The translations under genes and the position numbers were made by a program. From Myxococcales bacterium (GTDB taxonomy: Bacteria > Myxococcota_A > Polyangia > Polyangiales > Houyiibacteriaceae), in NCBI GenBank assembly GCA_012744445.1, contig JAAYBZ010000138.1, positions 845-64,844 of the forward strand: a stretch of DNA of 64,000 nucleotides. The letters run 5' to 3'. The notes under the pieces were generated by a model. The model made no database searches, was not told where the DNA came from, and saw only the letters and a list, made by a program, of their open reading frames with translations. This document shows positions 62 through 56,190 of this stretch, piece by piece (position 1 is the first letter of the stretch; each line of letters begins with the position of its first letter).

Positions 62-487
62 ATGAGCGCGCCCAGCCAGATCCCCCCCGACGTCCTCGAG
101 AGCTATCGCGCGGCCGAGTACGCGGTCTTCGGCGCAGAAGAATTCGTCCTCCGCGTCGATCGTTCCTCGACCGCGCTCGCGGCGCTCCAGCGCCAAGCGG
201 GCGTGCGCGAGAGCGTCTTCCTCACCGCCTGCAACCCCGAGAGCGTGCCGCTCGACGAGGCGACGAACGCCGCGCGCCAGGCCGAGCTCGCGCGCCTGCT
301 CGAAGAACGCGGCCTCCGCGTCCTCCCCGCCGAGGGAAGGAGCGCCACGCGCGATTGGGTCGAGCCGAGCTTCCTCGTGCTCGGGCTCGGGCTCGCCGAG
401 GCGGCGGAGCTCGGCCGACGCTTCCGCCAGAACGCCATCCTCCACGCGGCCGAGGACGGCGTGCCCCGGCTCATCTTGCTCCGCTGA
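62..487 (+). CDS. DUF3293-like conserved hypothetical protein
   Basis: 141-aa ORF with G/C-dominated third positions. The pattern FLTACNPES...WVEPSFLVLG...RFRQNAI recalls DUF3293 (from memory, not searched). Confidence 0.5.
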   Translation: MSAPSQIPPDVLESYRAAEYAVFGAEEFVLRVDRSSTALAALQRQAGVRESVFLTACNPESVPLDEATNAARQAELARLLEERGLRVLPAEGRSATRDWVEPSFLVLGLGLAEAAELGRRFRQNAILHAAEDGVPRLILLR

Positions 488-511
488 GGCCCCTTTTTCG
501 AGCCGCGCGGG

Positions 512-790
512 GTGATTATCTTGCGTGGGATGGACTGCCGACGCGGCCTCTCCCTCCTCGCCCTCGCGGCGCTCGTCGCCCTCCTCGCCGCCTGCAAGAA
601 GGAGCCGCCGCCCGCGCCGGAAGCGCCCGCTACCGCGGAGCCCGCCGAGCCCGAGCCCGAGGCCGAAGACGCGCCCGAGCCGGAGCCCGAGCCCGAGCCG
701 CCCCGCCCCGTCGAGCAGCTCTCCGAAGAAGAGCTCGAGGCCGAGTGCTTCCGCGGCCGCACCGAGGCCTGCGACCTCCTCGGCCATTGA
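512..790 (+). CDS. small acidic Pro/Glu-rich lipoprotein
   Basis: Signal peptide with lipobox LLAAC, followed by an EPEPEAEDAPEPEPEPEPP linker. The true start may be ATG 530 (MDCRRGLSLL...). Confidence 0.5.
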   Translation: MIILRGMDCRRGLSLLALAALVALLAACKKEPPPAPEAPATAEPAEPEPEAEDAPEPEPEPEPPRPVEQLSEEELEAECFRGRTEACDLLGH

Positions 791-835: not shown

Positions 836-1930
836 GTGAGCTCGGCCCCGCGTGACTACTACACCGTGCTCGGCGTCTCGCGCGACGTCGACGCCGCCGG
901 GCTCAAGGCCGCGTACCGCAAGCTGGTCATCCAATACCACCCGGACCGGAACCCGGGCGACGCCGAGGCCGAGGCGCGCTTCCGCGAAGCCACGGAGGCG
1001 TACACCGTCCTCTCCGACGAGGAGCGGAGGAAGCGCTACGACCGCTACGGCCACGCCGCCTTCGGCGAGCCGGGCAAGTCGCCCTTCGAGGGCGGGGACT
1101 TCGGCTCGGTGGCCGACATGCTCGAGGGCCTCTTCGGCGAGGTCTTCCGGCGGCGCAAGAAGCACCTCGCCAAGGACCTCACCTACGACCTCACGGTCTC
1201 CTTCGTGGAGGCCGCGCTCGGCGCCGAGAAGAAGATCCGCGTCACGCGATCGGTGCCCTGCATGAGCTGCCGCGGCACGGGCGCCGCCCCCGGCTCCAAC
1301 CCGCCGCCCTGCGCCGAGTGCAAGGGCACGGGCGAGACCAAGCTCAAGCGCGGCTTCCTCTCGAGCACGCGCCCCTGCGTCGCCTGCGGCGGCAAGGGCG
1401 TGCGCATCCTCGAGCCCTGCCCCTCGTGCAGCGGCCGCGGCAAGGAGAAGCGCGAGGACGAGCTCACCGTGCGCATCCCCCCGGGCGTGCAGGACGGCGC
1501 CGTCCGCACGGTGCGCGGCGGTGGCGAGATCGAGCCCGACTCCAAGGGCGATCTCCACGTCACCGTCCACATCGAGAAGCACCCGCTCTTCGAGCGCGAC
1601 GGCGCCGACGTGCGCATGACGCTCCCGGTGAGCGTCCCGATGGCCGCGCTCGGCGCCACGGTCGAGGTGCCCACGCTCGAGGGCAAGGTGCAGATGAAGA
1701 TCCCGCCCGGCACGCAGAGCGGGAAGGTCTTCCGCCTGCGCGGACGCGGCATCCCCGTCTTCGGCGGCGCCGCCAAGGGCGATCAGCTCGTCACCATCCA
1801 GGTCGAGATCCCGCAAGGGCTCGGCCGCAAACACCGCAAGCTCCTCGAGGAGCTCGAGGAGAGCCTCCCCGCCGACGCCCATCCCGTGCGCGCGGCCTAC
1901 CTCGACACCCTCCGCAAGCTCGGTCTCTGA
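836..1930 (+). CDS. dnaJ: DnaJ (Hsp40) co-chaperone
   Basis: J-domain YYTVLGV...YHPDRNPGD, a short G/F region, four CxxCxGxG zinc-finger repeats (CMSCRGTG, CAECKGTG, CVACGGKG, CPSCSGRG) and C-terminal substrate-binding domains. Confidence 0.9.
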   Translation: MSSAPRDYYTVLGVSRDVDAAGLKAAYRKLVIQYHPDRNPGDAEAEARFREATEAYTVLSDEERRKRYDRYGHAAFGEPGKSPFEGGDFGSVADMLEGLFGEVFRRRKKHLAKDLTYDLTVSFVEAALGAEKKIRVTRSVPCMSCRGTGAAPGSNPPPCAECKGTGETKLKRGFLSSTRPCVACGGKGVRILEPCPSCSGRGKEKREDELTVRIPPGVQDGAVRTVRGGGEIEPDSKGDLHVTVHIEKHPLFERDGADVRMTLPVSVPMAALGATVEVPTLEGKVQMKIPPGTQSGKVFRLRGRGIPVFGGAAKGDQLVTIQVEIPQGLGRKHRKLLEELEESLPADAHPVRAAYLDTLRKLGL

Positions 1931-1942
1931 CGGGCCCCCGCG

Positions 1943-3280
1943 ATGTTCGAGGGCGGCTCGCGTGCTATTGCCCCGCCGATGGCCACCCCGCTCGAAGGCA
2001 TCCTCTCGCGGCTCGACGAAGCCCCGAGGCTCCGCGCCGAGGGACGCGTGGAGGCCGTCTCGGGCCTGGCCATCCGCGTGACCCTGCCGGGGGCCTTCGT
2101 CGGTGAGCACGTCGTCCTCGAGCGCTCGGTGGGCGGGCCGCTCGGCGCCGAGGTCGTGGGCCTCGAGCGCGATCGCGCCGTCCTCCTCGCGCACGGCGAG
2201 GTGAGCGGTCTCGCCGCGGGCGACGCGGTGAAGCCCACCGGCCACCCCCTGCGCATCCCCGTGGGGAGCGCGCTCCTCGGCCGCGTCCTCGACGGGCTCG
2301 GGCGTCCGCTCGACGGAGGCCCCGCGCTCCCCCCCACGGCCGCCATCGTGAACGATCCGCCGCCGCCGCTCTCGCGCCCGATGATCGGCGCGCCGCTCTC
2401 GACGGGCGTGCGCGCCATCGACGGCCTCCTCACGCTCGGCCGCGGCCAGCGCGTGGGCCTCTTCGCGGGGAGCGGCGTGGGCAAGAGCTCCCTCCTCGCG
2501 CAGATCGCGCAGATGACCGAGGCCGAGTGCTTCGTCGTCGCCCTCGTGGGCGAGCGCGGCCGCGAGGTGCGCGAATTCCTCGAAGACGGCCTCGGCGAAC
2601 AGGGCCGCGCGCGCGGCGTCGTCGTGGTGGCCACGAGCGATCGGCCCGCGCTCGAGCGGATGCGCGCCGTCGACGTCGCCACGCGCATCGCCGAATCGCT
2701 CCGCGACGAGGGCAAGGACGTGCTCCTCCTCGTCGACAGCGTCACGCGCTTCGCCCGCGCGGCGCGCGAGGTGGGGCTCGCGGCCGGCGAGCCGCCCACG
2801 CGGAGGGCCTATCCGCCGAGCGTCTTCGCCGCGCTCCCGCGACTCCTCGAGCGCGCGGGCCTCTCCGAGCACGGCTCCATCACCGCGCTCTACACGGTGC
2901 TCGTCGAGGCGGGCGACATGGAGGAGCCCATCGCCGACGAGATCCGCGGCATCCTCGACGGCCACATCGTCCTCGATCGCAAGCTCGCCTCGCGCGGGCA
3001 CTTCCCCGCCATCGACGTGCCCGCGAGCCTCTCGCGCCTCTTCCCCAAGCTCGTGTCCAAGCCCCACCGCGAGGCGGCCGCGCGCTTCCGCGCCCTCCTC
3101 GCGGCGCTCGCCGACAAGCTCGATCTGCACGCGATGGGCGCGATCGAGCCCGGTCGCGATCCGCTCTTCGATCGCGCGCTCGCGCGGCGCGACGCGCTCG
3201 AGGCCTTCCTGCGGCAGGCCCAGGACGAGCGCTCGGGCTTCGACGAGACCGTGCGCCGCCTCCTCGAGGTGAGCTCGTGA
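1943..3280 (+). CDS. FliI/SctN(YscN)-family type III secretion-type ATPase, orphan
   Basis: Walker A GSGVGKS and Walker B VLLLVDSVTR. Family blocks RAIDGLLTLGRGQRVG, VGERGREVREF, GEPPTRRAYPPSVF, GSITALYTVLVE and DGHIVLDRKLA..HFPAID are present. The ATG lies 12 nt after the dnaJ stop. Confidence 0.85.
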   Translation: MFEGGSRAIAPPMATPLEGILSRLDEAPRLRAEGRVEAVSGLAIRVTLPGAFVGEHVVLERSVGGPLGAEVVGLERDRAVLLAHGEVSGLAAGDAVKPTGHPLRIPVGSALLGRVLDGLGRPLDGGPALPPTAAIVNDPPPPLSRPMIGAPLSTGVRAIDGLLTLGRGQRVGLFAGSGVGKSSLLAQIAQMTEAECFVVALVGERGREVREFLEDGLGEQGRARGVVVVATSDRPALERMRAVDVATRIAESLRDEGKDVLLLVDSVTRFARAAREVGLAAGEPPTRRAYPPSVFAALPRLLERAGLSEHGSITALYTVLVEAGDMEEPIADEIRGILDGHIVLDRKLASRGHFPAIDVPASLSRLFPKLVSKPHREAAARFRALLAALADKLDLHAMGAIEPGRDPLFDRALARRDALEAFLRQAQDERSGFDETVRRLLEVSS

Positions 3281-5142
3281 ACGCGCTCGAGCGCGGCCTC
3301 GATCGCCTCCTCGCGATGCCTTCGCCGGCCACGGACGCGCTCGAGGAAGCGCTCCTCCGCGAAGCCGTCGAGGCGCTCCGCGCGCGCCCCTATTTCGGCG
3401 CCGGCCTCGTCGATGAGGGCGACGACCATGCGCTCCTCCTCGAGGCCACGGCGAGCGTGCGGCTCTTCGTGCTCCACCACTTCGTCACGCCCCTCGAGCG
3501 CGACGAGGCGACGACGCGCGCCGCGCTCCGCCTCGTCGAGGCGCTCGAAGCCCGCGAGGACGCGCTCGCCCGACAAGCGCCCGCCCCGCTCGCGCTCCGC
3601 CACGAAGTCCTGCGCTACCTCCACCCGAGGCCGCTTGCGCGGAACCTCGAGGGTCTCCGCGAGCTCCTCGCCCGCGTCGAGGCGATGCCCGAACGGCGCG
3701 GCATCTTCCGCTTCCTCCGCGACAAGGCGCACCAGCACCTCCAGTTCTATCGCCTCTTCTTCCGCGCCAAGGCCTACCTCGCGCGGACGCGCCGCATCCG
3801 CGAGAAGCTTCCCCCGCGCGTCCGCGCGCTCCCCGTCGCGCTCGAGACCTTCTCCGCCGTCGAGCAGATGGGGCCCATCGTCGACAACTTCGTCTTCGAC
3901 GGCCTCGGCAAGCCCGCCTCGGATCCCGCGGTCGCCATCGCCGACTTCGGCTTCCTCTACATGCAGATGGCGGACGAGCTCGTCGACTCGATCCTCCACC
4001 ACGCGGGCTACGAGCGCACCATCACGCTCGTGCGGCGGCTCGCGCTCTCGCCCGAGGGGCGCGCGGCCTTCGTGCCCTTCATGCACGTCGAGGCGGCCGA
4101 TCTCCACGAGGTCGGGCTCACCTTCGACTCACCGAACGAGAAGTACCGGACGACGCTCGGCGAGATGATCCTCGCTCTCCGCGAGCTGCGCGAAGTGATC
4201 GAGCGCGAGATCGAGCGGGTCGACGACGCGGAGGGTGTGCGGCGCGAGCTCTCCGCCTTCTTCCACCACTGCTTCTCGACCTTCCTCGACGAGCTCGAAT
4301 TCCTCCGCTCGCGGCCGGGCGCGCGCCTCGACAAGCTCCCGCTCGGCGAGACGCTCTTCCACTTCTACCGCAAGAACAACCTCGTGATGATGCGGTGGCT
4401 CGGCCTCCGCGCGCGGCTCCGCGGAATCGATCCGCGGATCCCGGAGAAGCGCATCCGCGCCTTCGGCTACGTGCTCGCCACCTTCCAGGTCTTCGACGAC
4501 CTCAAGGACCTCGCCGTCGACCTCGAGAAGCAGCCCAACTACGCGCTCCAGATCGCGGCGAGCCACCACCCGCACGAGCTCGCGCGCGCCGAGGCGCGCT
4601 TCTCCTCGCACCGCGAGGCCCTCCGCGTGCGCGACATCCCCTGGGTGAACCTCCGCATGCCCGGCACGGTCCTCACCTGCTTCCGCCTCGTGAAGCTCAT
4701 CGCGCGCTCGCACTTCTCGTGGTTCGAGGACTACGTGATCGATCTCCGCTGGCGCCGGAACTGGCTCGTCCGCCGCGGCAACTTCAACCCCGGCGAGGCG
4801 CGCGGACACCTCCTCGAGGAAGCGCTCGGCGAAGGGCGGCGCCTCCCGCTCCCGGCGCTCGCGCGCGCCGTGCTCCGCGAGCTCTCGGTGCTCCATCGCG
4901 ACGCGAGCCACGACGAGCTCCTCGCCTACGTCTTCGACGTGCTCGCCTTCGAGCGGCGCCCGGCGCTCTGCCTGGCCGCGCTCCCGAACCTCCACCGCGT
5001 CTACCGCATCCTCAACCTCTCGATGCGCATGGCGCCCGAGGAGAAGGCCCGGATCGTGCGCAAGATCCTCGAGATCGCGCCCGAGGAGGTCCTCGCCGTC
5101 GAGCCGCTCCCTCGTGACAACCCGGGTCTCCACGAGACATAG
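3277..5142 (+). CDS. 621-aa helical hypothetical protein with polyprenyl-synthase-like DDxxD signature
   Basis: GTG 3277 overlaps the TGA of the ATPase (GTGA). The region upstream of 3277 in the 871-aa track ORF is an Arg-rich shadow over the ATPase gene. Motifs are ATFQVFDDLKD (aa 403-411) and MADELVD (aa 231-237). Confidence 0.6.
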   Translation: MNALERGLDRLLAMPSPATDALEEALLREAVEALRARPYFGAGLVDEGDDHALLLEATASVRLFVLHHFVTPLERDEATTRAALRLVEALEAREDALARQAPAPLALRHEVLRYLHPRPLARNLEGLRELLARVEAMPERRGIFRFLRDKAHQHLQFYRLFFRAKAYLARTRRIREKLPPRVRALPVALETFSAVEQMGPIVDNFVFDGLGKPASDPAVAIADFGFLYMQMADELVDSILHHAGYERTITLVRRLALSPEGRAAFVPFMHVEAADLHEVGLTFDSPNEKYRTTLGEMILALRELREVIEREIERVDDAEGVRRELSAFFHHCFSTFLDELEFLRSRPGARLDKLPLGETLFHFYRKNNLVMMRWLGLRARLRGIDPRIPEKRIRAFGYVLATFQVFDDLKDLAVDLEKQPNYALQIAASHHPHELARAEARFSSHREALRVRDIPWVNLRMPGTVLTCFRLVKLIARSHFSWFEDYVIDLRWRRNWLVRRGNFNPGEARGHLLEEALGEGRRLPLPALARAVLRELSVLHRDASHDELLAYVFDVLAFERRPALCLAALPNLHRVYRILNLSMRMAPEEKARIVRKILEIAPEEVLAVEPLPRDNPGLHET

Positions 5143-5149
5143 TCGCGCC

Positions 5150-5521
5150 GTGGCCAGCCTCGAAGACAAGAAGCGCGCCGTCGCGCGCTACATCGAAACC
5201 GTCTCCGCGGGAGACCTCGACGGAATCCTCTCGCTCTACACCGAGGACGCGACGCTCGAAGATCCCGTGGGCTCGGCGCCCGTGGTGGGTCACGCCGCCA
5301 TCCGCGCCTTCTACGAGCGCGCGACCAAGATGGGCATCCGCCTCGAGCCCACCGGCCCCGTGCGCATCGCCGGCGACGAGGCGGCCTTCCCCTTCCGCGT
5401 GAGCACGGTAGGCGGCCCCAAGATGACCATCGACGTGATCGACGTCTTCCGCTTCGACGAGGCGGGCAAGGTCGTCTCCATGCGCGCCTACTGGGGCAAG
5501 GAGAACATGAAGATGGGCTGA
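5150..5521 (+). CDS. ksi: delta5-3-ketosteroid isomerase (NTF2/SnoaL fold)
   Basis: From GTG 5150 the 123-aa product matches the remembered Comamonas testosteroni KSI block for block: RYxxxxxAGDLDGI, DATLEDPVGS, AAIRAFY, FRFDEAGKVVSMRAYWGKEN. Tyr14, Asp38 and the Asp99 equivalent are in place. Confidence 0.8.
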   Translation: MASLEDKKRAVARYIETVSAGDLDGILSLYTEDATLEDPVGSAPVVGHAAIRAFYERATKMGIRLEPTGPVRIAGDEAAFPFRVSTVGGPKMTIDVIDVFRFDEAGKVVSMRAYWGKENMKMG

Positions 5522-5525
5522 GCCC

Positions 5526-6638
5526 TCACGCGCGCGAGGTGTCGCGCGTGACCACGCCACCCTGCACGTGGAAGTCCACGCGATCGCGCTCGAGCAAGAT
5601 GAACTCGGGGTGCGTGGTCGTGAGGAAGACCTGCCCGCCGAGGCGCGAGATGCGCTCGAAGAGCCGCCGACTGCGCGTGCGATCGAGCTCGCTCGAGACG
5701 TCGTCGAGCAGGAGGATCGGCACCATCCCGAGGCGCTCGGCCACGTAGTCGAGCTCGGCGATCTTCATCGAGAGCGCGAGCGCGCGGTGCTGCCCCTGGC
5801 TCGCGTGATGGCGCGCGCCCACCTCGCCGAAGCGGAGCTCGAGATCGTCGAGGTGAGGGCCATCGGCCGTGAAGCCGCGGGCCCGATCCACGGGCCACGC
5901 GGCCTCGAGCGCGCGCAGGATCGCGCCCTCGTCGCCCTCGACGCGCGGGGCGTAGCGGGCCTCGAGCCGGAGCACGTCCCCTACGACCTGCTGGAAGGCG
6001 GCCTCGATGCGCGGAGCGATCTCCGTGACGAGCGCGCGGCGGTGCTCGACGATGACGGCCCCGTGCCGGGCCAGGAGGACGTCGTAGGGGGCCACGGCCC
6101 GCCGATCGACCTCCACCTCCTTGAGGAGACGATTGCGGCTCCTGAGGGCCTTCTCGTAGGCCGCGAGGGCCTCCGCGTAGAGGGGGGCGGTGGGCTCGAG
6201 GAGCTCGTCGAGGTAGGCGCGGCGGATCTCGGCGCTCCCGGTCGAGAGCGAGAGGTGCCCCGGGTGGAAGATCACGACCGGCAGGCGCTTGCGGAGGACG
6301 GCGGCGCTCTTCGGGCGCTTCCCGTCGAGGGTCACGCGCCGGGTGCGGCCCCGACCGAGCGCGACCGCGACCACCTGCGAGGTGTGCTCCGCGGCCACGC
6401 GCATCTTGAGCACGGCGTCGCCTGCGCCTAGCGCGATCACGTCGTCGGTCTTGGCGTTCCGGAAGCTCCGGAGCGTGCCGAGGAGGTAGATCGCCTCGAG
6501 CAGGTTGCTCTTGCCGGCTCCGTTCTCCCCGTGGATGACGTTGAAGTGGGGACCGGGCTCGACGTCGAGCCCTTCGAGGTTACGGAAGCCGTGCGTGGCG
6601 ATGCGCTCGATGCGAAGCGCCCGCGGGCCTTCGGCCAC
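5526..6638 (-). CDS. recF: DNA replication and repair protein RecF
   Basis: N-terminal block FRNLEGLDVEPGPHFNVIHGENGAGKSNLLEAI, SMC-like Walker A/B and signature. Lies directly downstream of dnaN. Confidence 0.95.
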   Translation of the reverse strand: MAEGPRALRIERIATHGFRNLEGLDVEPGPHFNVIHGENGAGKSNLLEAIYLLGTLRSFRNAKTDDVIALGAGDAVLKMRVAAEHTSQVVAVALGRGRTRRVTLDGKRPKSAAVLRKRLPVVIFHPGHLSLSTGSAEIRRAYLDELLEPTAPLYAEALAAYEKALRSRNRLLKEVEVDRRAVAPYDVLLARHGAVIVEHRRALVTEIAPRIEAAFQQVVGDVLRLEARYAPRVEGDEGAILRALEAAWPVDRARGFTADGPHLDDLELRFGEVGARHHASQGQHRALALSMKIAELDYVAERLGMVPILLLDDVSSELDRTRSRRLFERISRLGGQVFLTTTHPEFILLERDRVDFHVQGGVVTRDTSRA

Positions 6639-6641
6639 GGA

Positions 6642-7766
6642 TCAGATCCGCATGGGCATGACCACGCCCACGAAGTCGACGTCGTCGCCGACCGGACGGA
6701 TCACGCCGGGGTCGAGCTCGCCCGAGAGCTCGAGCGAGACCTCGTCGTGGGAGAGGGCCTGGAGCGCGTCGAGGAGGTAGCGCGCGTTGAAGCCGATGGA
6801 GATCGAGTCGCCCGAGTAGTCGACGTCGACCTCCTCGAAGCCCTCGCCCACCTCGGGGTTCTGGCTCTGCACGCGGATGAGGCCCGGCTCGATGCAGAGC
6901 TGCACGCCGCCGCTCTTGTCGTGCGCGACGAGGCTGATGCGCCGGAGCGCCTCGACGAGGTTCGCGCGGCTCGCGACGATCTTCCGCGCGTGCTGCTTGG
7001 GGATGACCTTCTCGTAGGGCGGGAACTGCTCCTCCGCGAGCTTCACGCTGAGGAACTGTCCGTCGTGGCGGAAGAAGGCGCTGCCCGCGGCCTTGGCGAT
7101 GCCGATGACGGGCGCGCCGCCCTTGTCGAGCGCGCGGACGTCGTCGAGGAGCTTGCGGAGCTCGGTGACACCCTTGTGCGGGATCAGCATCGAGAAGTCG
7201 AAGCTCGCGCCCGGGACCTTGCGCTCGGCCTTGGAGAGGCGGTGGCCGTCGGTCGTGACCATGCGCACGATCTCGCCCTTGCCCTCGAAGAGCGTGCCCG
7301 AGAGGTGCGGGCGCGTGTCGTCCGACGACATGGAGTAGTGCGTGAGCGTGATGAGCTCGACGAGGCGATCGGCCGGGACCTCCGCGAAGGTCGCGTCGAC
7401 CGGCATGGGCAGCGGCGGGAAGTCGTGCCCCGGGAAGCCCGGCACCTTGTACTGCACCTTGCCGCAGCGGATGGTCAGACCCCGGTTCTCGCCGACCGTG
7501 ATGGAGACCTCGCCCTGCGGGAGCGCCCGCACGATGTCGTGCAGCATCTTCGCGGAGACGGCGATCTGCCCTTCACGCACGACCTTGGCGGGCACCGTGG
7601 AGGTGACGCCCTGGTAGAGGTCGGTCGCGCTGAGCCGGAGCGCCTCGTCGCCCTGCGTGGCGAGCAAGACGTTGGAGAGGATGGGCATCGAGCCCTTGCG
7701 CTCCGCGACGCCGTGAGTGCGGGAGAGACCTCGCAGAAGGTCTCGCTTGTCGATGCTGAGCTCCAT
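6642..7766 (-). CDS. dnaN: DNA polymerase III beta sliding clamp
   Basis: 374 aa. N-terminus MELSIDKRDLLRGL...PILSNVLLAT, with the three-domain clamp pattern and C-terminal VVMPMRI. Confidence 0.95.
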   Translation of the reverse strand: MELSIDKRDLLRGLSRTHGVAERKGSMPILSNVLLATQGDEALRLSATDLYQGVTSTVPAKVVREGQIAVSAKMLHDIVRALPQGEVSITVGENRGLTIRCGKVQYKVPGFPGHDFPPLPMPVDATFAEVPADRLVELITLTHYSMSSDDTRPHLSGTLFEGKGEIVRMVTTDGHRLSKAERKVPGASFDFSMLIPHKGVTELRKLLDDVRALDKGGAPVIGIAKAAGSAFFRHDGQFLSVKLAEEQFPPYEKVIPKQHARKIVASRANLVEALRRISLVAHDKSGGVQLCIEPGLIRVQSQNPEVGEGFEEVDVDYSGDSISIGFNARYLLDALQALSHDEVSLELSGELDPGVIRPVGDDVDFVGVVMPMRI

Positions 7767-8116: not shown

Positions 8117-8130
8117 TAGAACGTGTTCTA
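8117..8130. promoter_or_regulatory. KstR-type operator-like palindrome TAGAACGTGTTCTA
   Basis: Perfect fit to TnnAACnnGTTnnA with fully inverted arms TAGAAC/GTTCTA. It lies 10 nt upstream of the ATG of the KshA-like gene. Confidence 0.4.
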
Positions 8131-8140
8131 TTCTCGGGCG

Positions 8141-9082
8141 ATGGGTCGGACGCAGGGGCTCGAGGGGTATCCGCGAGGACACTTCGTCGTCGCGTTCTCC
8201 GACGAGCTCGCGCAGGGCGAGCTCCGGCGTCTCCACTACTTCGGCCGCGAGCTCGTCCTCTTCCGTGATGCGGAGGGGAGGCCGCGCGTCCTCTCGGCGC
8301 ACTGTCCGCACCGCGGGGCGCACCTCGGCGTGGGCGGGAGCGTCGTGGGGGGCGAGGTCCGCTGCCCCTTCCACGGCTTCCAATTCGACGGCCGCGGCCG
8401 CTGCACGAAGATCCCCTCGGGCGGGCGCGTCCCCGAGGAGGCCCGGCTCGAGGTCTTCGAGACCACCGAGCGGAACGGGATGATCACCGTGCGCTACGAC
8501 CGCGGCGGCGTCGCGCCGGACTACGAGCTGCCCGAGCTCCCCGAGTGCCTCGACCCCGAATACTCCCCCTGGATGGTCCGCACCCTCCGCGTGCGCACGC
8601 ACCCGCGGGAGATCGTCGAGAACGTCGTCGACTTCGCGCACTTCGAGCCCGTACACGAGACGTGTGCCGAGCGCTTCGAGAACGAGTTCCGCGGCCACCT
8701 CGCCGTCCAGCGGAGCGAGGGCGTCGGCGCCCCCACGCATCGCTTCGCGGGGACGGCGTACCGCATCGAGGCCGTCTACCACGGGCCGGGCGTGCAATTC
8801 TCGCGCTTCGAATCACGTGGCATCCGCGTGGTCTTCGTCAACGCCAACACCATGATCGACGAGGGCACGGTGGACCTCCGCTTCGGCGTGCGCGTCGCGA
8901 CGGGCGGCGATCCCCGCTACCACGAGGGCTTCCTCCGGCATTTCATCGGCGACCTCCAGCGCGGATACGAGCAGGACGTCGCCATCTGGGAGCACAAGGT
9001 CTTCCGCGAGCACCCGGTGCTGGCCGAAGGAGACGGCCCCATCGGCGAGCTCCGCCGCTGGTATCGTCAGTTCTACACGTGA
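8141..9082 (+). CDS. KshA-family Rieske [2Fe-2S] non-heme iron oxygenase
   Basis: Rieske motif CPHRG...CPFHG, iron motif NVVDFAHFEPVH, and CTKIP, ERNGMITVRYD. The C-terminal DVAIWEHKVF...GDGPIGELRRWYRQFY matches KshA blocks. An alternative GTG start lies at 8123. Confidence 0.8.
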   Translation: MGRTQGLEGYPRGHFVVAFSDELAQGELRRLHYFGRELVLFRDAEGRPRVLSAHCPHRGAHLGVGGSVVGGEVRCPFHGFQFDGRGRCTKIPSGGRVPEEARLEVFETTERNGMITVRYDRGGVAPDYELPELPECLDPEYSPWMVRTLRVRTHPREIVENVVDFAHFEPVHETCAERFENEFRGHLAVQRSEGVGAPTHRFAGTAYRIEAVYHGPGVQFSRFESRGIRVVFVNANTMIDEGTVDLRFGVRVATGGDPRYHEGFLRHFIGDLQRGYEQDVAIWEHKVFREHPVLAEGDGPIGELRRWYRQFYT

Positions 9083-26358: not shown

Positions 26359-28965
26359 ATGCGACCCGATCGACTCACCACCAAGACCCGCGAAGCGCTC
26401 GTCGACGCTCAGAACCTCGCCAACGACAAAGGCCATCCCGAGGTCGTCCCCGAGCACTACTTGATCTCGCTCATCCGTCAGGAAGAGGGGCTCGCCCGTC
26501 CGGTGCTCGAGCGCGCCGGGGCCAACGTCACCACCGTCCTCGAACGCGCGGAGCGAGGGCTCTCGAGGCTCCCCGTGGTGCACGGAGGCGCCGAGGCCAC
26601 CCTCTCTCGCCGGCTCCGCCAGGTGCTCACGCGGGCGTGGAAGGAGACGGAGGCCAAGAAGGACGAGTACACGGCGGCCGACCACGTGCTCCTCGCGATG
26701 GTCCAAGAAGACGACGCGATGCGCGCGGTGATCGGCGTCGACGCCTCGGCGCTCGCGCAGGCCATCGACGCCGTGCGCGGCGGGCAGCGGGTCACCGACC
26801 CCGACCCCGAGGGCAAGTTCCAGGCGCTCGAGAAGTACACGCGCGACATCACGGCGCTCGCCAAGAAGGGCAAGCTCGATCCGGTCATCGGGCGCGACGA
26901 GGAGATCCGGCGCGTGCTCCAGGTCCTCTCGCGCCGCACCAAGAACAACCCGGTGATCATCGGCGAGCCGGGCGTCGGGAAGACGGCCATCGTCGAGGGC
27001 ATCGGCCAGCGCATCGCCAAGGGCGACGTGCCCGAGTCGCTGCAGAACAAGCGCGTCCTCGCCCTCGATCTCGGCGCGATGGTCGCGGGCTCGAAGTTCC
27101 GCGGCGAGTTCGAGGAGCGCCTCAAGGCCGTGCTCCAGGAGATCGAGAAGGCCGAGGGGCAGATCATCCTCTTCATCGACGAGCTCCACACGCTCGTCGG
27201 CGCCGGCGCGGCCGAGGGCTCGATGGACGCGAGCAACATGCTCAAGCCGGCGCTCGCCCGAGGCGAGCTCCGCTGCATCGGCGCGACCACGCTCGAGGAG
27301 TACCGCAAACACATCGAGAAGGACGCGGCGCTCGCGCGGCGTTTCCAGCCGGTCTTCGCCAACGAGCCGAGCGTCGCCGACACCATCGCGATCCTCCGCG
27401 GGCTCAAGGAGCGCTACGAGGTCCACCACGGCATCCGCATCCAGGACTCGGCGCTCGTCGCGGCGGCCACGCTCAGCGACCGGTACATCACCGATCGCTT
27501 CCTCCCCGACAAGGCCATCGACCTCGTCGACGAGGCCGCGTCGCGCCTCAAGATGGAGATCGAGTCGCTCCCGAGCGAGATCGACCAGCTCGAGCGGCGC
27601 GCCACGCAGCTCGAGATCGAGCGCGCGGCCCTCAAGCGCGAGAGCGATCCCGCGAGCCAGAAGCGCCTCGCCGAGCTCGAGGCCGAGCTCTCCGAGCTGA
27701 GCGAGAAGCGCTCGACGATGCGCGCCAAGTGGATGCGCGAGAAGGAGCTCATCGAGGTCATCCGCGACAAGAAGGAGGCCATCGAGGAGGCTCGGGTCGA
27801 CGCGGAGCGCGCGCAGCGCACGGGCGATCTCGACAAGGCGAGCCGCCTCCTCTACGGCGACATCCCCGCGCTCCAGCGCGAGCTCACCGAGGCACAGCAG
27901 AAGCTCGCCGAGGTGCAGAAGGAGGGGAGCTACCTCAACGAAGAGGTCACCGAGGAGGAGATCGCCGAGATCGTCTCGCGGTGGACGGGCATCCCCGTGA
28001 GCAAGATGCTCGAGGGCGAGAAGGAGAAGCTCCTCAAGATGGAGGAGAAGCTCTCCGAGCGGCTCGTCGGCCAGAAGGAGGCGATCACGGCCGTGAGCAA
28101 CGCGGTGCGCCGATCGCGCGCCGGGCTCGGCGACCCCAACCGCCCCATCGGCTCCTTCCTCTTCCTCGGCCCCACCGGCGTGGGCAAGACCGAGCTCGCG
28201 CGCGCCCTCGCGGAGCTCCTCTTCAACGACGAGCGCGCGATGGTGCGCATCGACATGAGCGAGTACATGGAGAAGCACGCCGTGAGCCGGCTCATCGGCG
28301 CGCCTCCGGGCTACGTCGGCTACGAGGAGGGCGGTCAGCTCACCGAGCCCGTTCGGCGGCGCCCCTACTCCGTCATCCTCTTCGACGAGGTGGAGAAGGC
28401 GCACCCGGACGTGTGGAACACGCTCCTCCAGGTGCTCGACGACGGCCGCCTCACCGACGGTCAGGGGCGCACGGTCGACTTCACCAACACGGTGATCGTC
28501 CTCACCTCGAACGTGGGCAGCGCCGAGATCCAGGACATCGCCGACGAGACGGCGCGGCGGAACGCGGTGATGCACATCCTCCGCCAGCACTTCCGGCCCG
28601 AGTTCCTCAACCGGCTCGACGAGATCATCGTCTTCCACCCGCTCGGCAAGGAGGAGCTCCGCGCCATCGTCGACATCCAGCTCGCGCGCTTCGAGAAGCG
28701 CCTCGCGGAGCGTGAGCTCGGCCTCGAGGTCACCGACGCCGCCAAGGACGCGCTCGGCGAGCTCGGCTACGACCCCACCTACGGCGCGCGGCCGCTCAAG
28801 CGGGCCATCCAGCGCTACGTGGAGAACCCGCTCGCCGAGGACCTCCTCATGGGTCGATACGCGCCGGGCGACGTGGTGGTGATCGACGCCATCGACGGGA
28901 AGCTCGGCTTCACGCGCAAGCGGCGGAACGGCGGCGGGACGACGGAGACGAGCGCGCACGTCTGA
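26359..28965 (+). CDS. clpB: ClpB disaggregase (Hsp104/ClpB AAA+)
   Basis: 868 aa. Two Walker A sites ([16 protein letters not shown]), a coiled-coil middle domain and a Clp N-domain. Confidence 0.95.
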
Positions 28966-43110: not shown

Positions 43111-44490
43111 ATGCAGGTCCTGTGGAAGACGACGCTCGAATCACTTCGGGAGCACATTTCGGAGGAGACGTTCCAGTCGCTCATTCGCCCGATCGAGCTC
43201 GCGTCGCTCGAGGGAAAGACCGCCCTCTTCCGCGTTCCCAACACCTTTCACGGTGAGTGGGTGACGGCGAACCTCGGGGACGTCATCTCGGACGCCCTCT
43301 GCGCGGCGGCCGAGGATCTCGGCCGTGAGATCCCCCGCCCCCTCGAGATCGCCTTCGAGGTCGACGACTCCCTCATGGACCGCTTCGAGATCGAGGAGAC
43401 CCCGGCGGAGCCCGCGAAGCCCGCGCGCGCCTCGGTCGCGCCCTCGGCCACCCCCTCCGCCGCCCCGCGGCTCAACGCCAAGTATTCGTTCGACAATTTC
43501 ATCGTCGGGCCCTCCAACCAGCTCGCCCACGCCGCGAGCGTGGGGGTGGCCAAGGCGCCGGGATCACGCATGAACCCCCTCGTCATCTGCGGCGAGACGG
43601 GCCTCGGCAAGACCCACCTCACCAACGCCATCGGCCGCGCCATCTACGAGGCCAACCCGAAGGCGCGCATCATCTACCTCTCGGCCGAGGAGTTCACCAA
43701 CGAGTTCCTCCTCGCCCTCCGCAACCAGCGGGCCGACGAGTTCCATCAGCGCTTCCGCCGCGAGTGCGACGTCCTCCTCATGGACGACATCCAGTTCCTC
43801 GCCGAACGCGAACGCACCCAAGAGGTGTTCTTCCACACCTTCAACACCCTCTACCAAGAGGGCAAACAGATCGTCATCACCTCCGACGTCTACCCCCAGC
43901 ACATCCCCGGCATGCAGGAGCGGCTCGTCAGCCGCTTCGAGGCCGGCATGGTGGCCGACGTCCAGCCGCCCGAGCTCGACACCCGCGTCGCCATCCTCCA
44001 GAAGAAGGCCGAGGAGGAGGGTATCGACCTCGATCCAGCCGTCGCCGACTTCCTCGCGCGCGTCGTCAAGAACAACGTGCGCGAGCTCGAGGGCATCCTC
44101 ATCCGCCTCGCCGTCAAGGCCGAGCTCCTCGGGCGCCGCATCGACATGGAGCTCGCCCGGGACGCGACCCGCTCCCTCATCGTCGAGGCCAACAACACGG
44201 CCACCACGGTCGAGGACATCCAGAAGGCGGTCTGCGCGTACTTCGGGATCCGCCTGAGCGACCTCAAGGGCAAGCGTCGGCACCGCGCGGTGAGCTTCCC
44301 CCGCATGGTCGCCATGTACCTCGCGCGGCAGCGGCTCGGCACGAGCTTCCCCGAGCTCGGCGACCGCTTCGGCGGCAAGGACCACACCACGGTGATGAAC
44401 GCGGTCCGCAAGATCGACCGCCTCGTCGAGGAGAGCGACGAGCAGGTCGTCGCCAGCATCGAGGCCATCGAGCGCCGCCTCGGCTTCTAG
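43111..44490 (+). CDS. dnaA: chromosomal replication initiator DnaA
   Basis: 459 aa. YSFDNFIVGPSNQLAHAA, Walker A GETGLGKTHL, LLMDDIQFL, sensor and box VII regions, and domain IV GGKDHTTVMNA. Confidence 0.95.
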   Translation: MQVLWKTTLESLREHISEETFQSLIRPIELASLEGKTALFRVPNTFHGEWVTANLGDVISDALCAAAEDLGREIPRPLEIAFEVDDSLMDRFEIEETPAEPAKPARASVAPSATPSAAPRLNAKYSFDNFIVGPSNQLAHAASVGVAKAPGSRMNPLVICGETGLGKTHLTNAIGRAIYEANPKARIIYLSAEEFTNEFLLALRNQRADEFHQRFRRECDVLLMDDIQFLAERERTQEVFFHTFNTLYQEGKQIVITSDVYPQHIPGMQERLVSRFEAGMVADVQPPELDTRVAILQKKAEEEGIDLDPAVADFLARVVKNNVRELEGILIRLAVKAELLGRRIDMELARDATRSLIVEANNTATTVEDIQKAVCAYFGIRLSDLKGKRRHRAVSFPRMVAMYLARQRLGTSFPELGDRFGGKDHTTVMNAVRKIDRLVEESDEQVVASIEAIERRLGF

Positions 44491-48803: not shown

Positions 48804-48929
48804 GCGCGGTGTCCGTTCGCGAGGTCCCACGCCCGGGAGCTGCGCAGAGGCTTGCAACGCGCGCGTCGAACACCGACATTGGGACGAGGCGGGGGGGAGC
48901 CCGCCGCAACACGCGAAAGGACGACGTCC

Positions 48930-49220
48930 ATGTCGAGCGAGGGGTATCACGAACCAATCGAAGAGCTCAGCGACGCGACGCGCGACATGCACCGCGCGAT
49001 CGTCTCGCTCATGGAGGAGCTCGAGGCGATCGACTGGTACAACCAGCGCGTCGACGCCTGCAAGGATCAGGAGCTCAGGGCCATCCTCGTCCACAACCGC
49101 GACGAGGAGAAGGAGCACGCGGCGATGGTCCTCGAGTGGATCCGGCGGCGCGACTCGACGTTCGCGAAGGAGCTCGAGGAGAAGCTCTTCACCACCGGCC
49201 CCATCGTGCACGGCCACTGA
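48930..49220 (+). CDS. encapsulated-ferritin (EncFtn)-family ferritin-like protein lacking a C-terminal targeting peptide
   Basis: AAAGGA precedes ATG 48930. HEPIEELSD...HRAIVSLMEELEAIDWYNQRVDA...ILVHNRDEEKEHAAMVLEWIRRRD...LFTTGPI is colinear with Rhodospirillum rubrum EncFtn as remembered. Confidence 0.75.
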   Translation: MSSEGYHEPIEELSDATRDMHRAIVSLMEELEAIDWYNQRVDACKDQELRAILVHNRDEEKEHAAMVLEWIRRRDSTFAKELEEKLFTTGPIVHGH

Positions 49221-50799: not shown

Positions 50800-51909
50800 T
50801 CAGACGATCGCGGAGGGCGCGCTCGAATCACGCCGCGTCCGCTCGATCCTTCGGCGATAGAGCATGGGCGCGAGGTAGGCCGTGGTGCGGATCGCCCTCG
50901 GGCCAGGCCGGAAGGACGCGTAGGTGATGACGCCCGTGCACTCCCTGAGCGGGCCAGGCGCGATGGCCCTCACGGCGTCGTGGAGCATCGTCGCCTCGGT
51001 GGCGTCCATCTTGGACATGATGCGCGCGAGGACGGCTTCGTCGTTGGGGCAGTAGCAGCGGATGGGCACGTGCAGCGTCCCCACCGGCGCGTCGCTCTTC
51101 CCGTCGAAGGCGAAGCAGACCAGGATCGGGCGCTCGTTGAACGGGCCGAGGTGCCCCGTGAGCCCGTAGAGGAGCTCGGAGGCGAGGCCCGGGTCGAAGT
51201 TGCGCGTCGGCTCGACGAGGCGCTCCACGGCGCGCGCGGAGTCGGAGCGCGCGACGTAGATCTTCACGCGCGCCGTCTCGGTCGCCGCGAGGTCGAGCGA
51301 GAAGTAGCGGAGCGCGTCGCCGTCGTCGCCGACGAGCCGTTCGACGAGCGCGGCTTCCTTTTCGAGGCCGAGCTCGACGAGCGCCTCACGGACGAGCGAG
51401 GGCGCGCGCGCCGCCCCGTGGATCCGCGGGTTGACGTACGCCTTGAAGAGCGACTCGCCCGTCGACTCGAGCACGGCGGCGTGCCAGAGGGCGAAGACCG
51501 CGTCGTCGCCCTCCTCGGGGGCGAAGAGCGGCGCGATCCGGGCGAAGCGTTCGAGGCTCGCGCCTTCGTGCTGCGCGAGCGCGTCGTTCACCGCGAGGCC
51601 CGCCTTCCAATTGGACGCGAGCGTGAACGGTGCCTCCTGGGGCTCGACGAGCATGCGGAGCTCGGTGCGTCCGTCGTTGAACGCCGCCGAGAGCTCGAAG
51701 GGCGATCCGTCGTCGCAGATGTCGTTGGGCCAAGGCGGACGGTCCCCGAGCGGCAGCTCGGCCCAAGGACCGCTCAGCCGCTCGAAGACGCGCACGGCGT
51801 GCGCCACCGACTCCTCCGAGGCGTGGATCGCACGCCCCAGCGCCGTCGCGAACTCCCCCAAGGCCGCGCGAAAGGAGCGCGACCCACCCTCATCCATCAC
51901 GCGTGCCAT
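50800..51909 (-). CDS. DMATS-type (ABBA) aromatic prenyltransferase
   Basis: PWPNDICDDGSPFELS, LFKAYVNP, RYFSLDLAATETARVKIYV and ILVCFAFDG resemble tryptophan dimethylallyltransferase-family blocks. The start lies 1 nt after the stop of the upstream gene. Confidence 0.65.
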   Translation of the reverse strand: MARVMDEGGSRSFRAALGEFATALGRAIHASEESVAHAVRVFERLSGPWAELPLGDRPPWPNDICDDGSPFELSAAFNDGRTELRMLVEPQEAPFTLASNWKAGLAVNDALAQHEGASLERFARIAPLFAPEEGDDAVFALWHAAVLESTGESLFKAYVNPRIHGAARAPSLVREALVELGLEKEAALVERLVGDDGDALRYFSLDLAATETARVKIYVARSDSARAVERLVEPTRNFDPGLASELLYGLTGHLGPFNERPILVCFAFDGKSDAPVGTLHVPIRCYCPNDEAVLARIMSKMDATEATMLHDAVRAIAPGPLRECTGVITYASFRPGPRAIRTTAYLAPMLYRRRIERTRRDSSAPSAIV

Positions 51910-51910
51910 C

Positions 51911-53359
51911 TCAGATGTCGATTCCCGGAGTGAGGATCTTCTTCTTGTCGTAGCGCGCCTTGAGCTTGTTGTGCTCGGGCAGCTGCGGGCCGAGGTGGTG
52001 GACCCAGTCGACCCGAGCGAAGTCGAGCGAGCCGATCGGATAGCGATACCCGCCGTGGAGCCGCGCCTTGTCGAAGAGCCGGCGGTTGCGCCGCATCATG
52101 CGATCGGCGTACGCGGCGTCGTACCCCGGCGTGGGCGCCGCCGTGAGGATGTCGAAGAGGAAGATCCACTCGTCCTGCGGCAAGCGGAGCGAAGGCCGCT
52201 TGAAGCGCGAGCGGCGCTGCGGGAAGAGCAGGAAGAAGCCGGCCTCGCCGACGTCCTCGGGCGTGAGCGTGGGCATGACCTCGCGGACGTAGTGCTCGAC
52301 GGTGCGGCCGGGGAGGAAGACGTCGAACCAGGGGTGCATGACGTCGTCCCACATCCCCGCGGCCTTGAAGCCGTCGACCGCCGCGTCGACGCGGAGCGCG
52401 TACTCGAGGAACGTGGTGTCGGCGACCTGCATCATCGGCGCCACGTGCTCGAGGTCACGGAGGAGGTGCGCCTGGTTGGGCGGCTGCGCCGGGTCGTAGT
52501 ACTTCACGGCGTTGAGCACGCTCATGAAGCCGGGGCCCATCGGGCTCGGCACCCACATGTTGAAGACGTCGTCGAATTCGTTCCTCCGGAGGAGCTTCCA
52601 GAGGTCGCGGAACATCGACTGATCGTCGAGGTAGATCAGCTGGAAATTCAGCGCGCGCGGGAGCGCGGGGACGAGCTCGACCACGGCGCGCGTGATGATG
52701 CCGTATTGGCCGAGGCCGCCGAGAACGCCGTTGAAGAGATCGCGGTTCTTGGTGTCGGAGCAGCGCACGATGTCGCCGTTGCCGGTGACGACCTCGAGCT
52801 CGTAGACGTGGTCGATCTGCGCGCCGCGATCGAAGCTCGAGGAGATGCCGCCCATCGAGAGCGTGCCGCCGAAGGAGAGGCCCGTGAAGCCCGTGAGGAC
52901 GGGCGGCGTGAGGCCCTGCGGCACCGTGAGGTGGAGGAGATCCTTCCACGTGGCGCCGGCGTCGACGTCGGCCTCGCCCGCGTCGATCGAGTGGATCGCG
53001 TCGAGCGTGCCCATGTCGATCATGAGCGTGGCGAGCGAATGACCGTGCGTGGAGTGCGCCTGTCCGCGCGCCGCGACGCAGATGCGGTTGTCGGCGCAGT
53101 AGCGCACCATCTTCTGGATGTCGGCGACCGAAGCCGGGCGGAGCACCGCGTTGGGCGTGCCGTAGACGATGTTGCCGGCGTCGGTGGAGTACGCCTCGAG
53201 GCTCGAGGGATCGGTGACGAGCTCACCCTCCAGCGGCGGGATCGGCTTGTTCTTCTTGGCCTCCGCGACGGGGATCCAGCGCCCGCCGATCGGATCGAAC
53301 CCGGCGATGGCGGTGGCGGCGGCCACACCCGAGAGGAACTGACGTCGGTTCAATGCCAT
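51911..53359 (-). CDS. Tat-signal FAD-linked oxidase, cytokinin dehydrogenase (CKX)-like
   Basis: From ATG 53359: MALNRRQFLSGVAAATAIAG (twin-arginine). FAD PCMH domain (VLRPASVADIQKMV...AARGQAHSTHG). CKX-like C-terminal domain (MHPWFDVFLPG, KARYDKKKILTPG). Confidence 0.7.
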   Translation of the reverse strand: MALNRRQFLSGVAAATAIAGFDPIGGRWIPVAEAKKNKPIPPLEGELVTDPSSLEAYSTDAGNIVYGTPNAVLRPASVADIQKMVRYCADNRICVAARGQAHSTHGHSLATLMIDMGTLDAIHSIDAGEADVDAGATWKDLLHLTVPQGLTPPVLTGFTGLSFGGTLSMGGISSSFDRGAQIDHVYELEVVTGNGDIVRCSDTKNRDLFNGVLGGLGQYGIITRAVVELVPALPRALNFQLIYLDDQSMFRDLWKLLRRNEFDDVFNMWVPSPMGPGFMSVLNAVKYYDPAQPPNQAHLLRDLEHVAPMMQVADTTFLEYALRVDAAVDGFKAAGMWDDVMHPWFDVFLPGRTVEHYVREVMPTLTPEDVGEAGFFLLFPQRRSRFKRPSLRLPQDEWIFLFDILTAAPTPGYDAAYADRMMRRNRRLFDKARLHGGYRYPIGSLDFARVDWVHHLGPQLPEHNKLKARYDKKKILTPGIDI

Positions 53360-53417
53360 GTGCTCCCTCAACTTCTCATCACTCCACGGCGATGGTGAGA
53401 TCCCGACTTGTTTTGCG

Positions 53418-54975: not shown

Positions 54976-56190
54976 TCAGTACCAGGCGGTCGCGCCGAGC
55001 GTGATCGTGTTCTGCCGGCGCGCGTTGGCGACGTAGGGCGAGCCCGGCGAGCCATCGCCCATCACCTGACGGCGGTAGAAGACGTCGCTCGCCGCGGAGT
55101 CGAAGCGGTGCTCGAGGCGGAAGGAGACGTTGCGGTGCGGCCGGTAGTCGAGCGTCGAGGTGAGCGAGCCGAGGCGCTTGGTGGGCCAGAAGATCGGCGT
55201 GGCGGTGTCGGCTCCGTCCCGCGCCACGTACTCGCGGAAGACGTCACCCCGGAGGGCGAAACGGAGCACCTCCTCGAGGATGGTGACGCGGGCGTAGAGG
55301 GCGCTCGCGACCCAGCCGCTCGAGCCGAAGCGGGTCGGCTCGACGCCGCCGTCGAAGTGCAGGCCGAAGTGGAGCCGCCGGTGGGCCTCGGCGAGCATCT
55401 GGAGGTCGAAGAGGTGCCGCCAGTGCTGGCCCTCCGGCGCGCCGGTCGGGCGCTCGATGCCGGTGAAGTAGACGAAGGCGATGGCGATCGCGTCGAGCGG
55501 CATGAGCTGCACGTCGAAGGCGATGGACTTCCCGTCGTTGTCGTCGACGACGCTGTTCCAGCCGTTGTAGGCGGCGAGCGTGGCGACGATCATGTCGCTC
55601 AGCGCGTAGGAGAGCTTCACGCCCGTGTGGTAGATGGGCAGCGCGAAGAAGAGGTTCGAGCGCGACCACTGGTCGCTCGAGTGGATCGCGAGCGTCTCGA
55701 GCCCCACCGGCGAGAGGAAGATGCCCGCCGCGACGGAGAGCCCGTCGACCTTGGCGAAGCGGTAGCCCGCGTAGGCCTCCTGCACGTACTTGAAGACCTC
55801 GGCCGAGGTGGCGTTGGTGCCGCTCGCGCCCGGGAAGGAGGGCTCCTTCAGGTAGTAGGTGCTCGGTGTGTGGCCGACCTGGAGCATCACCCGCCCGAAG
55901 GCGCCGCGCGCGTCGAACGAGCCGCCGAGCGCGAGGTTGGTGAGCGTGAAGGTGTTGTGTCGGTTGTCGAAGCCGCGGAGGTGCGTGATGCGGTTCGAGG
56001 GCCGGTTGAAGTTCCACTGGTAGTGGGTCTCGACGTAGGCCTCGATCTCGTAGGGCTTCTTCTCCTCGACGGGCTCGAAGGGCGCGCCGGCGTCGTCGGC
56101 GCGCGCGATTCGAGGCGCCGCGAGCGCGAGGACGAGGCCGAGGAGGGCGAGCGCGCGGCCGCGGCGCGGCGGGGACGACGGGCGCTTCAT
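54976..56190 (-). CDS. outer-membrane beta-barrel porin-like protein
   Basis: 404 aa from ATG 56190, which overlaps the upstream stop (ATGA). Signal peptide ...PRIARA-DD, alternating strands, and a terminal aromatic TAWY. Confidence 0.6.
   Translation of the reverse strand: MKRPSSPPRRGRALALLGLVLALAAPRIARADDAGAPFEPVEEKKPYEIEAYVETHYQWNFNRPSNRITHLRGFDNRHNTFTLTNLALGGSFDARGAFGRVMLQVGHTPSTYYLKEPSFPGASGTNATSAEVFKYVQEAYAGYRFAKVDGLSVAAGIFLSPVGLETLAIHSSDQWSRSNLFFALPIYHTGVKLSYALSDMIVATLAAYNGWNSVVDDNDGKSIAFDVQLMPLDAIAIAFVYFTGIERPTGAPEGQHWRHLFDLQMLAEAHRRLHFGLHFDGGVEPTRFGSSGWVASALYARVTILEEVLRFALRGDVFREYVARDGADTATPIFWPTKRLGSLTSTLDYRPHRNVSFRLEHRFDSAASDVFYRRQVMGDGSPGSPYVANARRQNTITLGATAWY

Follow-up and report, generated by a model that had tools for sequence, protein, structure and literature searches.

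We examined a 64-kb stretch of contig JAAYBZ010000138.1 from a Myxococcales bacterium (assembly GCA_012744445.1), called the window below, which has a G+C content of 71%. Near its left end, four genes follow one another on the plus strand. The first, dnaJ (836..1930), encodes a type I DnaJ of 364 amino acids. The second (1943..3280; 445 amino acids as an open reading frame, ORF) encodes an ATPase of the FliI/SctN family, here termed an orphan in that no gene of a type III secretion system (T3SS) accompanies it. The third (3277..5142) encodes a 621-residue protein, p621, from a small uncharacterised family of the Myxococcota, and the fourth, ksi (5150..5521), a 123-residue protein of the ketosteroid-isomerase (NTF2/SnoaL-like) family. 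Comparison with related loci suggests that this cluster is a composite of three separable units, namely a DnaJ anchor, an orphan SctN-type ATPase and an enzyme pair, and not a four-part machine; we give this reading about an even chance (a probability of roughly 0.5).

The dnaJ stop codon lies at 1928-1930 and the ATPase ORF opens with the ATG at 1943. The TGA of the ATPase (3278-3280) and the GTG of p621 (3277) share the sequence GTGA, an overlap of 4 nucleotides (nt) at 3277-3280, and a Shine-Dalgarno-like GAGGTGA is found just 5' of that GTG. The p621 gene stops at 5142, and ksi starts after a gap of 7 nt with the GTG at 5150. The original prediction had described these coordinates and junctions, and a real packing on the plus strand, correctly. 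All four ORFs between 836 and 5521 have a strong coding signal, with a G+C content of 0.93-0.96 at third codon positions and 0.42-0.51 at second positions. The start of the ATPase that is conserved among relatives is probably the ATG at 1979 (M13, giving a protein of 433 amino acids that begins MATPLEGIL). The 12 extra residues read from the ATG at 1943 are missing in relatives, and an M13-type start occurs in the 85%-identical protein P0047 and in others. With a start at 1979 the gap between dnaJ and the ATPase gene becomes 48 nt. No terminator-like site was found on the plus strand inside 836-5521; given this and the tight spacing, the four genes are probably co-transcribed in the window.

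An intact FliI/SctN-family ATPase

The ATPase has the three-domain architecture of FliI and YscN, with an N-terminal beta-barrel (PF02874, 2.1e-4), a RecA-like nucleotide-binding domain (PF00006, 4.9e-85) and a C-terminal T3SS domain (T3SS_ATPase_C, PF18269, 2.5e-19). It passes the NCBIfam model TIGR01026 (fliI_yscN) with 513.7 bits against a cutoff of 379.5. Its scores are below the cutoffs of the SctN equivalog TIGR02546 (556.3 against 604.75 bits) and of all three equivalogs for FliI clades 1-3 (515.5, 511.2 and 485.9 bits, with cutoffs of 587-630). The best solved relatives are T3SS ATPases (9e58, EscN 6njo and SsaN) and FliI, with E values from 1e-105 to 1e-117. Residues 92-430 can be aligned with EscN (6njo/2obm), SsaN (4nph), FliI (2dpy/5b0o) and Spa47, and all catalytic motifs are common to these enzymes. 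Unlike them, the window ATPase remains under the SctN and FliI equivalog thresholds and has no stator, stalk or export gate in its genomic context.

When aligned to 9e58, the ATPase shows a Walker A motif (GSGVGKS), a Walker B motif (VLLLVDSVTR), VGERGREV with the catalytic Glu, and ADEIRGILDGHIVLDR. The arginine-finger region is conserved and the ORF is intact. Judged by these profiles and motifs, the ATPase is a real, intact enzyme of the FliI/SctN family and a member at the subfamily level. It falls short of a true SctN or FliI in two defining features, the equivalog score and the genomic partners. Among the orphan ATPases, the ratio of nonsynonymous to synonymous substitution rates (dN/dS) ranges from 0.03 to 0.30, which is similar to what the same pairs of genomes give for DnaJ and recF. 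Mean pairwise identity among the orphans is 64% overall and 79% in the catalytic core. An enzyme that is catalytically intact and under purifying selection can be expected to do something, and the earlier claim of an intact ATPase with Walker A, Walker B and FliI/SctN family blocks is borne out by Pfam, TIGR01026 and dN/dS.

Context and phylogeny of the orphan ATPases

Our search for partner genes covered the 64-kb window and flanks of up to 10 kb in related loci. Pfam scans of essentially all called genes in the window revealed no T3SS or flagellar family, and a Polyangia SctL query had no match anywhere in its 64 kb, in agreement with the original observation that no such partner is present there. 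Six loci (L001-L006) are duplicates of that end of the window which carries dnaJ and the ATPase gene, and in these a tblastn search with the myxobacterial proteins SctL, SctO, SctP, SctQ, SctR, SctS, SctT, SctU and SctI likewise had no match.

About 90 related ATPase loci were compared. The tblastn queries were Pfam-verified T3SS proteins from a Myxococcaceae locus (L077), which by Pfam holds a full T3SS (FliH/SctL, YscO-like, FliK-like, FliM/N, FliO, FliP and Bac_export_1/2/3). The sctL gene is immediately upstream of the ATPase gene in 60 of the loci, and in 23, the window among them, neither sctL nor another T3SS gene occurs within the flanks. The Polyangia SctL query gives the same 60/23-type split, and the SctL queries detect SctL across three classes. 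The sctL-linked loci take three forms. Full loci of a needle-less T3SS (T3SS*) occur in the Myxococcia and relatives, and the Bradymonadales have loci with sctI, sctL, sctN and sctO. In the Polyangia, conservation is limited to an uncharacterised gene of 300-370 codons, sctL, sctN and a HIT gene, which are located between ppx and mfd. This mini-cluster has no other T3SS gene within 10 kb; it is found at L055:8246-11654, where Pfam identifies the SctL-SctN pair, and in about 20 other loci (L022, L026, L029-L031, L037, L044, L053, L056, L060, L065, L067, L068, L070, L072, L075, L076, L084, L088 and L090).

Candidates for hidden partners were rejected. The divergent ORFs of 190-213 residues upstream of some orphans (L012, L015 and L020), considered as a possible SctL, match no Pfam family, do not resemble SctL and lack a homologue in the window. 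The gene for a 317-residue protein upstream of the ATPase in L158 encodes a lineage-specific Cys-rich lipoprotein. A search of the loci with SctV motif patterns gave no match, although the patterns may be poor and we draw no conclusion from it. Among the 80 loci listed, no assembly contained two, as judged by a scan with exact peptide patterns that bears only weakly on whether an orphan and a T3SS occur together.

The best 120 homologues of the ATPase are all from the Myxococcota, mostly from Polyangiaceae, Sandaracinaceae and Polyangiales, with 58-63% identity. A scan of GTDB species genomes found at least 80 loci with 50-62% identity. The orphan form has been kept across Polyangiaceae, Sandaracinaceae and metagenome-assembled genomes (MAGs) of Polyangiales. 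In a neighbour-joining tree with YscN, SpaL, HrcN, RhcN, a Desulfovibrio SctN and two FliI sequences as references, the sctL-linked ATPases were one clade that excluded all 23 orphans, the window ATPase among them (bootstrap 97/100, and 49/60 with gamma-corrected distances). The orphans fell into group A (the window, L009 and L023), which was weakly supported, group B (bootstrap 99) and group C (bootstrap 91); the tree left the joint monophyly of the three groups unsettled. Two residues give independent support for placing the orphans outside the sctL-linked clade. At R288 and E322 the orphans match most of the outgroup SctN and FliI references (R or K in five of seven at the first position, E or D in all seven at the second), whereas the sctL-linked clade has Q and A. 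The tree and these residues place the orphans, which are sctL-less Polyangia lineages, apart from the sctL-linked ATPases of the Myxococcota.

Apart from other Polyangia ATPases, the closest cellular relatives of the window ATPase are the SctN proteins of the needle-less T3SS of Myxococcota (Thiery et al. 2022, as cited in PMC10196010), the Myxococcus-type 'Myxo' non-flagellar T3SS (PMC3459982). They belong to the same family, have the same domain architecture and are 52-53% identical to it. The 'Myxo' system has been described only in the Cystobacterineae (Abby & Rocha 2012, PMC3459982). In such loci (L077) the ATPase gene is between sctL and sctO-sctP-sctQ, near sctRSTU; the window has none of these, and its ATPase falls outside their clade. 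The Polyangia SctL-SctN pairs resemble the window in that a T3SS ATPase of the same class is detached from the gate genes. They keep FliH/SctL and the uncharacterised upstream gene and belong to the sctL-linked clade, however, whereas the window type is SctL-less and associated with DnaJ. Our searches of the searchable literature turned up no account of Polyangia SctN-type ATPases that adjoin DnaJ or lack sctL.

The ATPase could instead power a T3SS-like export apparatus, needle-less or scattered as in Chlamydia, with its other parts encoded elsewhere in the genome and its position beside dnaJ incidental. We regard this as rather unlikely, although several observations would fit it. The ATPase has retained an N-terminal amphipathic helix and the T3SS_ATPase_C domain, and the SctL-SctN pairs of other Polyangia, far from gate genes, show that scattering of T3SS parts does occur in the class. 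Copies of sctV and sctR have also been reported in Polyangia genomes (PMC11509652). On the other side, each sctL-linked locus that we saw has an ATPase of its own and the orphans are a separate lineage; no sctL was found within the flanks of any orphan with queries that detect SctL in three classes. The N-terminal helix of canonical T3SS and flagellar ATPases binds FliH/SctL. In the orphans this helix is the least conserved part, with an identity of 0.30 compared with about 0.5 in the sctL-linked groups. The loss of the ATPase in sister lineages, described below, also argues against an export function, as does a KEGG/MacSyFinder survey, Sandaracinus included, in which T3SS occurred 'mainly' in the order Myxococcales (PMC10196010).

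Separability of DnaJ, the ATPase and the p621-ksi pair

The window DnaJ matches the Pfam families DnaJ (3.2e-24), DnaJ_CXXCXGXG (1.4e-11) and DnaJ_C (1.5e-46). It passes the NCBIfam model PRK10767 (392.9 against a cutoff of 338) and is just below the cutoff of the equivalog TIGR02349 (370.1 against 377.2). Its translation contains a J domain with HPD, a short G/F region, four CXXCXGXG zinc-finger motifs and the C-terminal substrate-binding domains, by which it is a complete canonical type I DnaJ (Hsp40). DnaJ appears to be the stable anchor of a conserved chromosomal site beside recF-dnaN. Its orthologue follows a divergent pseudouridine-synthase gene in four loci (L009, L011, L156 and L157) and is located left of recF-dnaN in three (L009, L156 and L157), that is, in relatives both with and without the ATPase.

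On the other side of the cluster are recF (5526..6638) and dnaN (6642..7766), both on the minus strand; recF has the same position in L009, L156, L157 and L158. The convergent recF is the conserved right-hand anchor of the syntenic block, and dnaN encodes the beta clamp of DNA polymerase III; in L001 their products were identified by the Pfam families SMC_N/AAA_23 and by DNA_pol3_beta domains 1-3, respectively. The recF-dnaN pair is about 35 kb from dnaA (43111-44490) and not directly beside it, and ClpB (26359-28965) and many metabolic genes are located between them.

The arrangement at this site differs among relatives. L156 and L157 have RluA, then DnaJ-p616/608-KSI, then recF-dnaN at the same chromosomal spot, which is the arrangement of the window minus the ATPase. 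In L103 and L138, p621 comes directly after DnaJ. The DnaJ tree shows these four loci as sister lineages to the window, and tblastn at E<=10 found no ATPase remnant between dnaJ and p621 in any of them; a 48-residue ORF in L157, considered as a possible remnant, is not derived from an ATPase. The identity of DnaJ to the window protein is 64-65% in L103 and L138, which have no ATPase, compared with 61% in the ATPase-bearing L009. Neither DnaJ nor the ATPase is encoded near p621 in about 45 metagenomic loci (34-42% identity) and on two long contigs, and Sandaracinus amylolyticus has DnaJ-ATPase followed by a hydrolase, without p621. Because p621-ksi occurs without the ATPase in the sister lineages and p621 occurs alone elsewhere, the four-gene order is not conserved as a unit. 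The original prediction had named conservation of that order in relatives as a test; L156 and L157, the roughly 45 distant loci and L158, in which the order is split, speak against it.

DnaJ is the sole recurrent neighbour of the orphan ATPases; in 15 of the 23 loci it is located next to the ATPase gene or less than 5 kb away. It is directly upstream on the same strand in nine, directly downstream and convergent in four (group B), and 3-5 kb away in two. Six loci have no dnaJ within 10 kb, and the remaining loci have a flank too short to judge. One of the six loci without dnaJ, from a Sandaracinaceae MAG (L015), has dnaK (Hsp70; L015:3962-5854) 4 kb upstream of the orphan ATPase, with genes for an ABC1 kinase, a dienelactone hydrolase and a divergent, uncharacterised 212-residue protein between the two. 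The DnaJ tree is congruent with the ATPase tree, group B being separate in it, which fits a long co-inheritance of the two genes.

The p621 protein had no match in Pfam or NCBIfam, and a profile search of PDB sequences also returned nothing. Ten of its distant relatives likewise had no Pfam or NCBIfam match, the polyprenyl_synt and terpene synthase models included. The family is small, with 45 homologues, and with 65 representatives among 1.84 billion proteins. Invariant in 40 aligned members are D233-E234-x-x-D237, R365-K366-N367 and F403-Q404-x-F406-D407-D408-x-K410-D411, as well as D415, Q419, P420 and Y422. The AlphaFold2 model is all-helical (predicted local distance difference test, pLDDT, 91.1; predicted TM-score, pTM, 0.90). 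The roughly 20 best matches of this model in a Foldseek search of the PDB are nearly all trans-polyprenyl diphosphate synthases, mostly with a probability of at least 0.9. According to the model, p621 would share with these synthases (4dhd, 1wy0, 2azl and 9imq) an all-alpha core and, on helices, two Asp-rich motifs, which in such enzymes bind Mg and read DDxxD/DDxxxxD and DDxxD. It differs from them in being about twice their size, in the DExxD form of its first motif, in its additional N- and C-terminal helical regions and in having no sequence-level match to Pfam polyprenyl_synt or the PDB.

With medium confidence, we predict that p621 is an enzyme built on a core like that of class I isoprenoid synthases. 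The predicted fold speaks against a coiled-coil or stator-like accessory of the ATPase. The protein had earlier been cast as a large helical partner of the ATPase, a role at odds with its predicted fold, its invariant Asp-rich motifs and the occurrence of the p621-ksi pair without the ATPase. Homologues from loci that have no ATPase match residues 6-602, and the N-terminal helices of p621 are thus not an addition specific to the presence of the ATPase.

The ksi product matches Pfam SnoaL_2 (3.1e-19) and, in the PDB, the steroid delta-isomerases 1ocv (E 5.8e-31) and 1e3v (E 2.9e-26) and MonBI/II (E 7e-33). It is below the cutoff of the KSI-related NCBIfam model TIGR02096 (27 against 97 bits). 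Its sequence is similar over the full length both to the Delta5-3-ketosteroid isomerases of C. testosteroni and P. putida (KSI) and to MonB-type epoxide-opening enzymes, and its translation has Tyr14 and Asp38, which we take to be the tKSI catalytic positions. On these similarities it is a member of the ketosteroid-isomerase (NTF2-like) family. A KSI homologue follows p621 in four lineages (L104, L156, L157 and L158).

Together p621 and KSI would be a small-molecule enzyme pair in a common transcription unit, with no need of the ATPase. The p621 protein would probably act on a prenyl diphosphate, and the KSI-type protein would then serve as an isomerase or cyclase. A Rieske/KshA_C oxygenase similar to 3-ketosteroid 9-alpha-hydroxylase is encoded at 8123-9082, 2.6 kb from ksi, and is followed by an acyl-CoA synthetase; this KshA-like oxygenase hints at steroid- or terpenoid-type chemistry around the pair. 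The small p621 family, with its KSI-type partner, may carry out terpenoid or steroid chemistry that is new.

According to the original prediction, DnaJ, the ATPase, the 621-residue protein and ksi would make up one new ATP-driven machine, a proposal that the comparative data largely contradict and that we consider very improbable. It would account for the packing on a single strand, with a gap of 12-48 nt, an overlap of 4 nt, a gap of 7 nt and no terminator-like site inside the cluster, and for the retention of the ATPase-p621 overlap in L009 and L158. It does not agree with the occurrence of DnaJ-p621-ksi without the ATPase, of DnaJ-ATPase without p621 and of p621 alone, with the predicted isoprenoid-synthase fold, that of an enzyme, or with N-terminal helices that are found equally in p621 homologues from loci lacking the ATPase. 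A further reading, in which the ATPase is what remains of a lost T3SS, decaying and without present function, is hardly credible: its loss in L156 and L157 and the lack of partner genes nearby would fit, but the ORF is intact, the Walker A and B motifs, the GERGRE catalytic loop and the arginine-finger region are conserved, sequence identity and dN/dS point to sustained selection, and the gene has been retained across Polyangiaceae, Sandaracinaceae and Polyangiales MAGs.

Possible roles of the ATPase

If the cluster is a composite of three units, as we propose, the ATPase would belong to Polyangia SctN-type lineages in which the genes for the stator (SctL), the stalk (SctO) and the export gate are no longer linked to that of the ATPase, and it would probably work as a hexamer independently of p621 and ksi. 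T3SS ATPases strip chaperones from their substrates and unfold them. By analogy, it is possible, and we suggest it tentatively, that the window ATPase is a free-standing cytoplasmic hexamer, which would unfold proteins or release chaperones in cooperation with DnaJ/DnaK. A more specific and decidedly speculative version is that a secretion-system ATPase was exapted in the Polyangia as a cytoplasmic proteostasis device, in which the SctN-type hexamer would take over clients from DnaJ/DnaK and unfold or release them. Such a device would be the chaperone-release activity of T3SS ATPases, retained after loss of the export apparatus.

The ATPases of T3SSs and flagella are considered dedicated components of the export machinery. 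With purifying selection acting on it, no stator, stalk or gate gene beside it and a recurrent place next to dnaJ, the orphan lineage may serve as a natural experiment on the capabilities of such an enzyme by itself. It may also represent a new step in the dismantling of the T3SS in the Myxococcota, which would lead from a full needle-less T3SS to an SctL-SctN pair and then to a lone SctN.

Several points weigh against the composite reading and the suggested link with DnaJ. The 4-nt overlap of the ATPase and p621 genes is kept in L009 (44% p621 identity) and in L158, which suggests that some coupling of expression has been maintained where both genes exist. The trees were built by neighbour joining only. 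The Foldseek matches of p621 are weak by E value (0.04-0.5), with a TM(target) of 0.5-0.6, and its first Asp-rich motif is DExxD and not DDxxD. The whole neighbourhood is syntenic, with UvrB, DUF4266-DUF3570 and the pseudouridine synthase (RluA) preceding DnaJ, so the adjacency of DnaJ may be inherited gene order and not a functional link. In the nearest relative, L158, whose ATPase is 85% identical, 2.7 kb separate dnaJ from the ATPase gene.

Within the region L158:6146-13555, this insertion comprises four genes, two of them on the opposite strand, which encode a further SnoaL-like protein, a globin, a TetR regulator and the Cys-rich lipoprotein. The genes for the ATPase, p625 and ksi are still tightly packed in L158. 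Since DnaJ is canonical, the neighbourhood is syntenic, L158 is split and the sister lineages have no ATPase although their DnaJ resembles the window protein no less than that of L009 does, a dedicated partnership of DnaJ and the ATPase is disfavoured.

Upstream of dnaJ and on the same strand, outside the conserved core, are genes for a DUF3293 protein (62-487; Pfam DUF3293, 2.6e-24) and a 92-residue lipoprotein-like ORF (512-790). Among the loci compared, these upstream genes (62..790) occur only in duplicates of the window's own locus. Further along the window, on the minus strand at 50800-53371, a gene for a Trp_DMAT-type aromatic prenyltransferase adjoins one for an FAD/cytokinin-dehydrogenase-like oxidase, possibly a small natural-product pair. 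Near this pair are genes for an EncFtn-like encapsulated ferritin (48852-49220) and a Coq4-like protein (56187-57014).

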